From Escherichia coli (lineage in GTDB: Bacteria; Pseudomonadota; Gammaproteobacteria; Enterobacterales; Enterobacteriaceae): a stretch of 64,000 nt of DNA. Both the position numbers and the translations under genes were made by a program. The notes below the pieces were generated by a model that saw only the letters and a program-made list of their open reading frames with translations, made no database searches and was not told the origin of the DNA. The stretch's first letter is position 1; every line of letters begins with the position of its first letter. Location of the stretch: assembly GCF_003334405.1 (NCBI RefSeq), contig NZ_QOWM01000010.1; one strand, written 5' to 3'. This document shows positions 5,793-64,000 of the stretch, in pieces.

Positions 5793-7268
5793 ATGTCCAG
5801 TCAATATTTACGTATTTTTCAACAGCCGCGTTCAGCCATATTGCTGATCCTGGGTTTTGCTTCCGGGCTACCGCTCGCCCTGACATCCGGTACCTTACAG
5901 GCCTGGATGACGGTCGAGAATATTGATCTCAAAACCATTGGTTTCTTCTCTCTGGTAGGCCAGGCTTACGTTTTTAAATTCCTCTGGTCACCGCTGATGG
6001 ACCGCTACACGCCTCCATTTTTTGGGCGGCGACGCGGTTGGCTGCTCGCCACGCAAATCCTGTTATTAGTCGCCATTGCGGCGATGGGTTTTCTCGAACC
6101 AGGCACCCAACTCCGCTGGATGGCGGCGCTGGCGGTGGTGATCGCTTTTTGCTCTGCCTCCCAGGATATTGTCTTCGATGCGTGGAAAACCGATGTGCTC
6201 CCGGCAGAAGAACGTGGTGCGGGCGCGGCAATCAGCGTTCTGGGTTACCGTTTAGGGATGCTGGTTTCCGGCGGCCTAGCCCTGTGGCTGGCAGATAAAT
6301 GGCTGGGCTGGCAGGGCATGTACTGGTTGATGGCGGCGCTGTTGATCCCCTGTATTATCGCGACGTTGCTTGCACCAGAACCGACCGACACCATTCCTGT
6401 GCCAAAAACGCTGGAACAAGCGGTTGTTGCACCTCTGCGAGATTTCTTTGGTCGCAATAATGCCTGGCTTATTTTGCTTCTTATCGTGCTGTATAAGCTG
6501 GGCGACGCATTCGCCATGAGCCTGACAACCACGTTTTTGATTCGCGGCGTCGGGTTTGATGCGGGTGAAGTAGGCGTGGTTAACAAAACGCTTGGCTTAC
6601 TAGCGACCATTGTTGGCGCATTGTACGGTGGGATTTTGATGCAGCGCCTGTCACTGTTCCGGGCACTGCTGATTTTCGGCATTTTACAAGGTGCGTCTAA
6701 CGCCGGTTACTGGCTGCTGTCGATTACTGATAAGCATCTCTACAGCATGGGCGCAGCCGTCTTTTTCGAAAACCTCTGTGGCGGGATGGGCACATCAGCC
6801 TTTGTCGCGCTGTTAATGACGCTATGTAATAAGTCATTTTCCGCTACTCAATTTGCCCTGCTCTCAGCGCTTTCTGCTGTAGGGCGAGTTTATGTCGGCC
6901 CCGTGGCGGGTTGGTTTGTTGAAGCACACGGCTGGTCGACATTCTATCTATTCTCCGTCGCCGCTGCCGTACCAGGGCTTATTTTGCTGCTGGTTTGCCG
7001 CCAGACGCTTGAATATACACGAGTAAATGACAACTTTATCTCCCGTACCGCATATCCGGCAGGTTATGCCTTTGCCATGTGGACACTGGCGGCGGGCGTC
7101 AGCCTGTTGGCCGTGTGGTTACTGCTATTGACGATGGACGCGCTGGATTTGACGCACTTCTCTTTCCTGCCTGCTCTGCTGGAAGTCGGGGTTTTAGTCG
7201 CCCTTTCTGGCGTCGTGCTTGGTGGTTTGCTGGATTATCTGGCGCTACGAAAAACGCATCTGACGTAA
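5793..7268 (+). CDS. ampG: anhydromuropeptide permease AmpG (MFS transporter)
   Basis: ORF track 491 aa, polytopic membrane protein recognised as AmpG; 43 nt downstream of yajG. Confidence 0.95.
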   Translation: MSSQYLRIFQQPRSAILLILGFASGLPLALTSGTLQAWMTVENIDLKTIGFFSLVGQAYVFKFLWSPLMDRYTPPFFGRRRGWLLATQILLLVAIAAMGFLEPGTQLRWMAALAVVIAFCSASQDIVFDAWKTDVLPAEERGAGAAISVLGYRLGMLVSGGLALWLADKWLGWQGMYWLMAALLIPCIIATLLAPEPTDTIPVPKTLEQAVVAPLRDFFGRNNAWLILLLIVLYKLGDAFAMSLTTTFLIRGVGFDAGEVGVVNKTLGLLATIVGALYGGILMQRLSLFRALLIFGILQGASNAGYWLLSITDKHLYSMGAAVFFENLCGGMGTSAFVALLMTLCNKSFSATQFALLSALSAVGRVYVGPVAGWFVEAHGWSTFYLFSVAAAVPGLILLLVCRQTLEYTRVNDNFISRTAYPAGYAFAMWTLAAGVSLLAVWLLLLTMDALDLTHFSFLPALLEVGVLVALSGVVLGGLLDYLALRKTHLT

Positions 7269-48051: not shown

Positions 48052-48256
48052 TCATTACTTATTGCCGGATGCGGCGTGAACGCCTTATCCGCCCTACGCG
48101 GTTCTGGCACATTTTGCAGGCCTGATAAGACGCGGCAAGCGTCGCATCAGGCATCGGAGCACTTATTGCCGGATGCGGCGTGAACGCCTTATCCGGCCTA
48201 CGGTTCTGGCACCTTTTGTAGGCCTGATAAGACGCGGCAAGCGTCGCATCAGGCAT
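48052..48256. repeat. BIME cluster: two tandem ~100-bp units, each with a convergent pair of REP palindromes
   Basis: Unit A 48052..48153 and unit B 48160..48256 are near-identical (TTATTGCCGGATGCGGCGTGAACGCCTTATCCGGCCTACG ... GTAGGCCTGATAAGACGCGGCAAGCGTCGCATCAGGCAT). Confidence 0.8.
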
Positions 48257-57946: not shown

Positions 57947-58408
57947 GTCTGTATTTCCTTATCCAAAGTATGGAGAAGTTAACATTATGTTTCACAACTT
58001 CATAGTGTCTGGAAGTATTATTTTTATGACAAAGGAAATACTTTGCGCAAATATTTTTTGTTTGATTACCAGCGAAACGTTTCTCTTATTTAAATAATTA
58101 CCCACACAAAATATAGGCTTTTAATTATCAACCTTTATTATAAATAAAAGTTATGAAATATATTCTCTTCGTTAACTTATAATTAAGAGAAAAAAACTCA
58201 CCGCATGGCCATTTAAGCCAGGAATAAATTAGCTTCCCGTTCATCATTTTTGTGATCTTGCGCACATCTTTGAGATAACGCACTTTCTTCACCAGTACGT
58301 TGCACGCTTTGTCAGCAGAAGATTGCAACAATCTTTCAGAAGGCCGCGAATCCCCCGTTTTGTCGTGGTAATGTATGCACTTTGTGTTAGACGGGATAGG
58401 TTTTTAAG

Positions 58409-61472: not shown

Positions 61473-62693
61473 TTAGCTCAAGGTATGGGTTACTTCCTGA
61501 ATTTTGTCACCATCCAGCTCATGTTCAAAGCTGCGCAGACGTTTGTAGATAGACATCAACTCAACCAGTGTGGTCCATGAGTTAATCAGGTACTGGAAAG
61601 CACCGCGAACCTGACCAAAAACGTTGGTAATCTGCGTCATCAGGCCGAGCGTAATCGTACCGGCAACAATTGACGGAAACAGCAAGAACAAACCGAAAAC
61701 GTTATCGACCTGCAAATAGAGAATGCGGGCGATGTTGAAATACATATAGTGAAAATAGAGGCGGAAATAGTTTTTCCGTACGGCGCTAAACAGCTCGCGT
61801 ACCGTAGGCGGCGTCGCGCGCGTGGCATCGTCTTCACCATAAACCAGCTCTTTACGGTAGGCAGCCTCTACACGCTGGTTTTTAAACTCCAGCCCCGGCA
61901 GTTTGATCCCTACCACTGCCAGCAATCCGGTCCCCATCAGCGACCAGACGATTGCGGCAATCACCAGACCATACGGAATGTGCCCGATAATCGGCAGCTC
62001 CGGCACATGCGCGGAGAGCGTTACCAGCACCGGCAGGAAGGCGATCAACGTCATGATGGCGTTGATAAAACTGACGCCCATATTCTCCAGCGTTGAAGCA
62101 AAACGCATGGTGTCTTCCTGCACACGCTGTGCGGCCCCTTCGATATGACGCAGTTGTTGCCAGTTCGCCATGTAATATTCGTTCATCGCTGTACGCCAGC
62201 GGAACACGTAGTGACTGACAAAGAAGTTGTTCAGCACACTGATCACCACAGCGATCAGCGCAATCCCCAGAAAGACGCCCACTTCGCGGTAAAATTGTTC
62301 GATGGTGACTTTATGCGGCGAACTTAGCGCGGTTTGAATCAGATCATAGAACGGCGCATACCAGGCGTTGACGGCGACCCCGACTTCCACCAAAAACCAG
62401 GTGACGAAGATGATCAGTGCAGTACCGAGTATTGACCAGTATTGCCAACGATGCGGGCTGTAGATAAACCAGAACAATGCAAAAAGTCCTACGCAAACAA
62501 TGTAGTAAGCGTAAAAAATCAGGAAATCCAACGACCAGAAACGCGCGGCGCTAATCGGGATCTGCCCGGAAGCGCCGGTGATACGCGCCACCCAGTCACC
62601 CCCACCGGCTTGCCAGAAGATAACGGCAATCAATGCCCAAACGAAGGCCGAGAGAAAAAACGTTCCCGGCTTTGGGAAAAAAGACTTAAACAT
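61473..62693 (-). CDS. sbmA: peptide antibiotic transporter SbmA (406 aa)
   Basis: ORF track 61473..62699 begins MHMFKSFF; start placed at the second ATG to give [17 protein letters not shown]. Confidence 0.93.
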
Positions 62694-63044
62694 ATGCACT
62701 CCTGCTAACTTCTTATCGTTTTAACAACTGCTGTGTATTAACCGCATGACCGCTACAAAGCGTCAGCCAAATGAAACCGCCCATTGTGACCCATAGCAAG
62801 GCGCTTAGTTCGCCAGCCTGACCATAAGAATTGTTTCGACGGATTTCACAAACCAAAGATTGTTTACATAAGCGGATTAACACGCGCAGGATCACAAATG
62901 CAGGCATTGGTGAGCAGGAAAAAGATCGTGTTTACGCGCCGTTACGTTTTTAACACTATTATTGCACTAATTCGCCCTTTGCAATCTATCAATGAGTAGT
63001 ATAAATACGCTCAGTTACCTTCATTCAATCTATGGACACCACCG

Positions 63045-64000
63045 TTGAAACGTAGTCTGCTTTTTTCTGCCGTGCTGTGTGCGGCGTCATTGACCTCCGT
63101 CCATGCGGCGCAGCCGATCACTGAACCGGAGTTTGCCTCTGATATTGTCGATCGTTATGCCGATCATATTTTTTACGGCAGCGGTGCCACGGGGATGGCT
63201 CTGGTTGTTATCGACGGTAACCAGCGCGTCTTTCGCAGTTATGGCGAAACGCGACCTGGTAATAACGTTCGCCCGCAGCTGGATTCGGTCGTGCGTATTG
63301 CTTCCCTCACCAAGCTAATGACCAGTGAGATGCTGGTGAAATTGCTCGACCAGGGGACCGTGAAGTTAAACGATCCGCTAAGTAAATATGCTCCGCCAGG
63401 CGCACGCGTGCCAACCTACAATGGGACGCCCATTACGCTGGTCAATCTGGCAACCCATACCAGCGCCCTGCCCCGTGAACAGCCCGGTGGCGCGGCACAT
63501 CGTCCGGTGTTTGTCTGGCCAACGCGCGAGCAACGCTGGAAATACCTTTCTACGGCGAAGCTGAAAGCCGCGCCAGGCAGTCAGGCGGCGTACTCTAACC
63601 TTGCGTTCGACCTGCTGGCAGATGCACTGGCGAATGCGTCCGGCAAGCCTTATACCCAGTTGTTTGAAGAGCAGATTACCCGTCCATTGGGGATGAAAGA
63701 CACCACCTACACCCCCTCACCGGATCAGTGCCGCCGTTTAATGGTTGCTGAGCGCGGTGCCAGTCCGTGCAATAACACGCTGGCGGCAATTGGCAGCGGC
63801 GGCGTCTATTCCACGCCTGGCGATATGATGCGCTGGATGCAGCAGTATTTGTCATCTGATTTTTATCAGCGCAGTAACCAGGCAGATCGCATGCAGACGT
63901 TGATTTATCAGCGCGCGCAGTTTACGAAAGTGATTGGCATGGATGTCCCCGGCAAAGCGGATGCGCTTGGTTTAGGTTGGGTATATATGGCCCCGAAAGA
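63045..64000 (+). CDS. ampH: penicillin-binding protein AmpH (beta-lactamase-like), 5' part; probable TTG start
   Basis: Hand translation from 63045 gives (L/M)KRSLLFSAVLCAASLTSVHAAQPITEPEF... with SxxK motif SLTK; frame open to window end, so absent from ORF track; first codon is TTG with no in-frame ATG before the upstream stop. Confidence 0.85.
   Translation, partial: MKRSLLFSAVLCAASLTSVHAAQPITEPEFASDIVDRYADHIFYGSGATGMALVVIDGNQRVFRSYGETRPGNNVRPQLDSVVRIASLTKLMTSEMLVKLLDQGTVKLNDPLSKYAPPGARVPTYNGTPITLVNLATHTSALPREQPGGAAHRPVFVWPTREQRWKYLSTAKLKAAPGSQAAYSNLAFDLLADALANASGKPYTQLFEEQITRPLGMKDTTYTPSPDQCRRLMVAERGASPCNNTLAAIGSGGVYSTPGDMMRWMQQYLSSDFYQRSNQADRMQTLIYQRAQFTKVIGMDVPGKADALGLGWVYMAPK

Follow-up and report, generated by a model that had tools for sequence, protein, structure and literature searches.

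The end of the window (the 64,000-nucleotide stretch of Escherichia coli DNA analysed here) carries two divergent neighbours, sbmA and ampH, that have a 351-nt intergenic region in common. The annotated sbmA gene occupies 61473..62693 on the minus strand. The ampH coding sequence lies on the plus strand, as do all other features described below, and occupies 63045..64000 before continuing beyond the end of the window; the full RefSeq/PGAP CDS is 1158 nt long and encodes 385 residues annotated as NCBIfam NF007943. Direct reading of the sequence shows that a TTG codon at 63045-63047 (+) opens the AmpH frame. The codons that follow, AAA CGT AGT CTG CTT TTT TCT GCC GTG CTG TGT GCG GCG TCA, translate as KRSLLFSAVLCAAS. 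The initial annotation had assigned the start to this TTG, and the RefSeq CDS begins on exactly the same base (window position 63045 is position 1846 of the locus in the RefSeq comparison). PGAP places the same start in a K-12 derivative and in a divergent-end strain (97.5% identity), and over 1.3 kb the window DNA matches many RefSeq chromosomes at 100% identity.

The closest in-frame stop on the 5' side of the ampH TTG is the TAG at 62997-62999. The gap between stop and start consists of 15 codons (TAT AAA TAC GCT CAG TTA CCT TCA TTC AAT CTA TGG ACA CCA CCG), and none of them is ATG, GTG, TTG or one of the near-cognates CTG, ATT, ATC and ATA. An upstream in-frame start in E. coli is therefore impossible, and the earlier statement that no in-frame ATG or GTG separates the upstream stop from the signal peptide holds across the whole gap. 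An open reading frame at 62898-62999 that shares the ampH frame is not conserved; among the loci, the in-frame stretch before the start varies in length from 4 to 97 codons. The ATG at 63032-63034 is offset from the TTG by 13 nt and is therefore out of frame. It encodes MDTTVET and terminates at its eighth codon, the TAG at 63053-63055, just as first described. The rarity attributed to TTG starts is also evident within the window, where the 63 annotated CDSs begin with ATG (54), GTG (7) or TTG (2), and across E. coli as a whole UUG opens about 3% of the genes (Hecht et al., bioRxiv 10.1101/063800).

AmpH scores 700.6 bits against the NCBIfam NF007943 equivalog, which has a cut-off of 266. Residues 1-378 align with positions 1-380 of the 380-position profile, and residue 1 falls on profile position 1. 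The SxxK active-site motif is S87-L-T-K90, with S87 and K90 invariant across 17 orthologues, and PF00144 is recorded for all hits. Score, full-length alignment and the SxxK motif identify AmpH as a class C PBP, a DD-peptidase with a beta-lactamase fold. The K-12 gene (b0376; 385-aa AmpH, NF007943) is the same gene with the same start and shows no difference at the start codon. A Sec signal peptide, MKRSLLFSAVLCAASLTSVHA, is predicted from direct reading of the sequence at 63045..63107 with cleavage before AQP, and the positively charged K2-R3 n-region is near-invariant among orthologues. N-terminal proteomics, which had been proposed as a check on the start, is poorly suited to AmpH because the signal peptide is removed from the mature protein; ampH is absent from the TRAINSPOTTER N-terminomics supplements.

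Conservation of the start codon within E. coli was measured by megablast with queries of 55 nt whose midpoint was the first base of the start, so that each 28-mer seed spanned that base. Among 5,426 complete E. coli genomes, the T-version query matched 5,420. The A-, G- and C-version queries, which represent ATG, GTG and CTG starts, had 0 matches among the same 5,426 genomes, and the sequence difference creating an in-frame ATG that the initial annotation had allowed for is found in none of them. Conservation between species was examined by one search of species-representative genomes from which the best 80 of 272 relatives were taken (83-99% protein identity). About 25 genera were covered, including Escherichia, Salmonella, Citrobacter, Kluyvera, Pseudocitrobacter, Klebsiella, Raoultella, Enterobacter, Lelliottia, Leclercia, Silvania, Kosakonia, Trabulsiella, Atlantibacter, Franconibacter, Phytobacter and Pluralibacter. 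A TTG occupies the homologous position in all 80 Enterobacteriaceae loci from these best 80 of 272 relatives; the suggested comparison of start codon identity across ampH orthologues thus returned a single codon.

The invariance of the start was compared with the variability of ampH at degenerate sites. The 53 gap-free sequences offer 118 fourfold-degenerate sites, of which just 2 are invariant; the median major-allele frequency at these sites is 0.55, and a start base free of constraint would therefore almost certainly have varied. Of the two- and three-fold codons, 75 specify an invariant amino acid, and in this set the third base is invariant only in codon 1 (TTG) and codon 2 (AAA). The third base of codon 3 (CGT) is T in 53 of the 53 gap-free sequences, so that codons 2 and 3 (AAA CGT, 63048..63053) are both fixed at their synonymous positions. 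A change of T to A or T to G at the first base of the start would still give fMet. UUG starts change to AUG or GUG more often than the neutral expectation genome-wide (Belinky et al. 2017, PMC5622118), which makes an invariant ampH UUG a sign of constraint. The saturation of synonymous sites, the fMet-neutral changes available at the start and the general tendency of UUG to switch together indicate that TTG-AAA-CGT is under purifying selection at the nucleotide level, and the alignment indicates the same for the upstream GGA.

Two blocks in the initiation region are invariant in 81 of 81 aligned sequences, GGA at 63034-36 and TTGAAAC at 63045-51. The GGA resembles a weak Shine-Dalgarno element and precedes the TTG by 8 nt; the spacer between the two is 8 nt long in 61 sequences, 9 nt long in 19 and 7 nt long in one. 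The duplex between GGA and the anti-Shine-Dalgarno sequence is worth only -3.0 kcal/mol. The leader thus has a ribosome-binding signal at a suitable distance, with weak pairing. The CG at positions -2 and -1 (63043..63044) is near-invariant in the alignment (at least 90%), and the -1 to -3 region is more conserved in UUG-start genes of gamma-proteobacteria (Belinky et al., PMC5622118). The AT directly before GGA is near-invariant as well. The distance from ATGGA to TTG is 12-14 nt across species, whereas the distance from GGA to a promoter-like block further upstream is variable. This combination of a near-fixed and a variable distance argues that ATGGA is part of the translation signal and not of the promoter. 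A Shine-Dalgarno model confined to GGA leaves the conservation of the preceding A and T unexplained.

Ribosome initiation profiling had been proposed as a check on the start, and data of this kind are published. In INRI-seq, a synthetic E. coli transcriptome is translated in vitro and retapamulin halts the ribosomes at start codons (Hör et al. 2022, PMC9825163); the constructs contain 30 nt of native leader per gene (PMC9825163). Signals of 41.9, 43.6, 29.7, 44.4 and 43.5 CPM were recorded at the annotated ampH start, which was scored as identified in 5/5 replicates (PMC9825163). Table S3 of the same study, which lists non-annotated initiation sites detected in vitro, has no ampH entry, and its entries for other genes, for example cyoD, nhaR and yaeF, include out-of-frame sites at -13 and -14 (PMC9825163). 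The in-vivo Ribo-RET value given for ampH is 0, in contrast to the positive in-vitro INRI-seq result. No mutational test of the ampH start codon was found in the literature.

The initial annotation took the TTG start to imply low translation efficiency. This is plausible, and one part of the evidence agrees with it: reporters that start with UUG reach 10-100% of the output obtained with AUG (Hecht et al., bioRxiv 10.1101/063800), and the GGA pairs weakly. The measured output fits less well. The ratio of in-vitro peak to transcript abundance is about 40/181 for ampH, about 75/346 for sbmA and about 23/330 for iprA. The ampH ratio is thus similar to that of sbmA and higher than that of iprA, and gives no obvious sign of a weak initiation region. 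By ribosome profiling, as cited in PMC4916385, about 400-700 AmpH molecules are synthesised per generation.

The annotation, the NCBIfam alignment from residue 1 and the invariance across genomes all support initiation of ampH at the TTG. It is concluded with high confidence that ampH is translated from the UUG at 63045-47 into a 385-aa pre-protein beginning MKRSLLF and that the initiation block is under purifying selection across Enterobacteriaceae. The assignment of TTG as the ampH start was already known and is correct but ordinary. The standard annotation is confirmed, the rare start codon is real, fixed and selected, and little else is changed. In the proposed mechanism, 30S subunits would bind a short, unstructured, pyrimidine/A-rich ampH leader, use the weak GGA and start at the UUG, which is followed by a favourable A-rich second codon, AAA. 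The product of this start would be the Sec-exported AmpH pre-protein. The sub-optimal UUG and the weak Shine-Dalgarno element may be kept to set a modest, capped level of AmpH and would then be no neutral leftover. Under this capped-dose proposal, which concerns a DD-endopeptidase/carboxypeptidase made at a few hundred copies per generation, regulation of ampH would act through transcription, which reportedly responds to CpxR. The gene is a clean case of a sub-optimal start frozen over a bacterial family and could serve as a testbed for the idea that weak starts cap the dosage of potentially harmful cell-wall hydrolases.

Conserved elements that resemble a promoter lie upstream of the leader. 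A -10-like element, GTATAAATA, is suggested at 62998..63007 by near-invariant alignment columns, and a putative -35-like element, TTGCAA, at 62979..62984 contains a TTGCA block (62979-83) at a fixed distance from the -10-like block. From the position of this block, the transcript would start near 63012-63015, with a predicted leader of about 30-33 nt. A strict sigma-70 consensus scan of the ampH upstream region called no promoter, and the two elements were recognised by conservation only. Nine Citrobacter loci have an insertion of 11-14 nt that separates ATGGA from the -10-like block, and the -10-like block is wholly missing from six loci of other species. The mRNA of ampH is reported to increase under Cpx-inducing conditions. 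The gene is reported to respond to CpxR, and a CpxR box lies between sbmA and ampH (PMC9600279); the same intergenic region contains a FlhDC ChIP peak with an undetectable effect on expression (PMC4183435).

The leader is also a reported target of MazF. The ampH mRNA is listed in the MazF regulon as cleaved at an ACA 9 nt upstream of the start, which corresponds to the ACA at 63036..63038 (Sauert et al. 2016, PMC5001579, Table 1), an entry based on read coverage after mazF overexpression (PMC5001579). In the alignment, this ACA is conserved only in Escherichia, Citrobacter, Salmonella and Trabulsiella. The ACA is missing from most genera in which ATGGA and TTG are retained, and MazF cleavage is therefore rejected as the reason for the conservation of these two elements. 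The specialised-ribosome model that invokes MazF is itself disputed.

The alternative that survives best concerns the out-of-frame ATG at 63032. The codon at this position is ATG in 77 of the 81 sequences, GTG in 2, TTG in 1 and ACG in 1. In the window it opens a seven-codon frame with its TAG (63032..63055) that overlaps both the GGA and the TTG. The frame ends in a TGA that overlaps the start (TTGA, +1) in 19 species and in a TAG 8 nt downstream of the start (+8) in 48, and is therefore short in 67 of 81 sequences. It runs for 30 or more codons in 13 species, and in one locus the ATG lies 12 nt upstream of the TTG and in frame with it. The four replacements of the ATG occurred on separate terminal branches, and all of them fall within the 13 long-frame species and none in the short-frame class. 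The long-frame class accounts for 19.6% of the length of a neighbour-joining (NJ) tree, which gives a naive P of 0.0015 for an association that rests on four events and on a quick tree built from the ungapped core of the alignment.

These observations would be expected if the conserved AUG were used and a uORF of 5-7 codons modulated ampH, either by reinitiation or as a decoy overlapping the Shine-Dalgarno element, in addition to the UUG start. The encoded peptide is unconserved (MDTTVET, MDAFR and others) and the frame differs between species, as anticipated if only the act of translation matters, and a used AUG would account for the A and T before GGA that pairing with the ribosome does not explain. 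There is a likeness to coupled uORFs of the AUGA/UGAUG type, in that UGA overlaps UUG in the 19 species and the stop lies 8 nt downstream in the 48. The ampH upstream AUG differs from these systems in having no initiation detected in vitro, no Shine-Dalgarno element of its own, and neither a conserved frame nor a conserved peptide. Initiation at the ATG at 63032 was not detected in vitro by INRI-seq, although that survey lists upstream out-of-frame sites for other genes; no Shine-Dalgarno-like motif lies upstream of the AUG; and 9 of the 13 long-frame species keep the ATG. A modulating uORF of this kind is judged unlikely. A little less probable again is the fuller proposal, in which the upstream AUG would be a functional start and its uORF, conserved by position and not by peptide, would terminate at the UUG or shortly beyond it and would determine or gate the production of AmpH, as a decoy or via a termination-reinitiation junction built on a UUG. 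If it were true, it would explain why the AUG and the weak UUG are both frozen across Enterobacteriaceae, and why the AUG decayed only where the upstream frame had lost its nearby stop. The frozen upstream ATG is a cheap and testable lead toward a small upstream ORF.

A second alternative explains the same co-conservation by RNA structure. A small hairpin between AUGG and YCGU, with a pair between the upstream A and the first U of UUG, would link the conservation of AUGGA, CG and U and could tune how accessible the start is. Pairing at the four core positions is possible in 96-99% of the rows, compared with 20-60% in slid controls, three one-sided changes preserve pairing (A-U to G-U twice and U-G to C-G once), and minimum-free-energy folds often pair the GGA and UUG regions. 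There are, however, no two-sided compensatory changes, and shuffles were uninformative. The stability of the hairpin is marginal, with free energies of -1.8 kcal/mol for the E. coli sequence and +1.1 kcal/mol for the Enterobacter type, and replacement of UUG by AUG barely alters the fold (-4.0 to -3.6). Folding of the leader is no more favourable than that of shuffled sequence (z = 0.11 for the 5' region), and an Rfam search of the ampH 5' UTR returned no hit at an E of 10 or better except one chance snoRNA match. The marginal hairpin, the z-score and the lack of two-sided covariation give no support to a stable leader structure, and the hairpin is considered very unlikely to explain the conserved block. 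The 5' UTR shows none of the features expected of a structured RNA regulator such as a thermosensor or riboswitch-like element. A CGTT-GA-AACG palindrome around the start can form no sensible hairpin, and its variants are uncompensated.

Translation from a downstream codon would make the TTG at 63045 a mere convention. In-frame candidates on its 3' side are the GTG at codon 10 (63072), the TTG at codon 16 (63090) and the CTG at codon 5, and the missing in-vivo Ribo-RET peak at the annotated start could be read in their favour. Codon 10 is variable, however, encoding Ala (GCG) in most species and A, L, M, T or V overall. Initiation at these codons would cost a periplasmic enzyme its charged K-R n-region or the greater part of its signal peptide. 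The INRI-seq peak lies on the annotated start with no alternative ampH site in the table, and invariance of TTG-AAA-CGT at synonymous sites is expected of an initiation site. A start further downstream, which the initial annotation had kept in view, is rejected as extremely improbable. The idea that the TTG arose from an ancestral ATG or GTG by mutation in this strain, or reflects an error of sequencing, is refuted by the T-only megablast result and by the TTG found throughout the species alignment.

Initiation at the conserved UUG places ampH beside other bacterial genes that use this codon. One of them is cyaA. The TTG start of cdsA has been studied experimentally (PMC11448367), and ampH has in common with such genes a sub-optimal canonical codon, the initiator tRNA and fMet. 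What is added for ampH is the depth of conservation, with the same codon in 80 species (the best 80 of 272 relatives) and in 5,420 genomes of E. coli. A second comparison is with regulatory non-AUG starts discriminated by IF3, namely the AUU codons of infC and pcnB and the GTC of Streptomyces sigR (PMC5472188). The ampH start resembles these in being a conserved non-AUG codon retained by selection and not by drift. The infC, pcnB and sigR starts are non-canonical and have a demonstrated IF3-dependent loop, whereas the ampH UUG is canonical and no such loop is known for it. The present analysis adds to what was known of ampH the depth of TTG conservation, the refutation of the artefact and of the downstream start, a pointer to the in-vitro data and the frozen neighbouring ATG.

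The conserved TTG also bears on the annotation of AmpH in other genera. Several genera have an in-frame ATG 9 or 12 nt upstream of the TTG, which makes the start used in those species less certain; the ATG 9 nt upstream occurs in Kluyvera, Pseudocitrobacter, Klebsiella, Leclercia and others. Because of this codon, gene callers other than PGAP give AmpH a length of 386 to 430 aa compared with 385 aa. The alignment indicates that the conserved TTG identifies which AmpH start is homologous among the genera where gene callers disagree on the N-terminus.

The strain represented by the window is not K-12. It differs from the K-12-derived record by a few SNPs elsewhere and by one copy of a 6-bp repeat in tsx. 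This 6-bp indel causes the window and K-12-derived coordinates to disagree over the first 28 kb.

The ATGGA motif at positions 63032-63036 includes the out-of-frame ATG located 13 nt 5′ of the ampH TTG start codon (63045-63047) and the weak Shine-Dalgarno-like GGA. It is kept in the window and at the homologous position in the 80 species-representative Enterobacteriaceae ampH loci (L003-L082), and its retention across these 81 sequences is independent of frame. The spacing between ATGGA and the TTG is held to 12-14 nt throughout the set. The ATG is substituted by GTG (twice), TTG, and ACG, and these substitutions are confined to lineages in which the frame opened by the ATG has no nearby stop. 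The ACA at 63036-63038, 9 nt 5′ of the ampH start, has been reported as a MazF cleavage site (PMC5001579), and an ampH mRNA cut at this position would lack both the GGA and the upstream ATG.

Many genera have an in-frame ATG located 3-4 codons 5′ of the conserved ampH TTG. This ATG is approximately 9 nt from the TTG in loci L020-L024, L027, L028, L031, L034, L036-L038, L050, L055, L060, L061, L068, L074, L078, L080, and L082, and 12 nt from it in L033. The in-frame ATG accounts for the differing AmpH lengths listed for the same loci in public protein sets, which are 385 aa (PGAP) and also 386, 388, 389, 404, and 430 aa. In the JGI AmpH entries, residue 1 is written literally as L.

A 33-codon ATG open reading frame at 62898-62999 (+) lies in the ampH frame, is separated from ampH by a single TAG, and overlaps the promoter-like elements. 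The ORF is not conserved across species, and the in-frame upstream length ranges from 4 to 97 codons. The intergenic region between the divergent sbmA and ampH genes (62694-63044) reportedly contains a CpxR box, with CpxR-dependent transcription of both genes (PMC9600279). An FlhDC ChIP-seq peak has also been reported in this region, with no detectable regulation (PMC4183435). The ampH start codon itself is at the center of a nearly invariant 4+4 palindrome, CGTT-GA-AACG (63043-63052). The palindrome is too short for a hairpin, and its variants lack compensation.

The only other annotated TTG-start CDS in the window is at 58128-58331 (-) between iraP and ddlA and encodes a 67-aa hypothetical protein (WP_001300163.1). 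Two Rfam matches score above the gathering threshold. The sRNA sraA lies between lon and clpX at 522-617 (+; 106.7 bits), and the REP-derived RNA naRNA4 lies between araJ and mak at 48119-48198 (-; 79.8 bits).

The Tsx channel doubles as a phage and colicin receptor, and tsx (27325-28203, +) has one copy of GGCAAC at ~28134-28145 compared to two in a K-12-derived RefSeq record. The difference is an in-frame 6-bp tandem encoding Gly-Asn in the channel. Eleven SNPs relative to the same record cluster within ~480 bp of ampG (~5923-6403), whereas the remainder of the 64 kb has few differing sites. The ampG cluster could be a small recombination patch.
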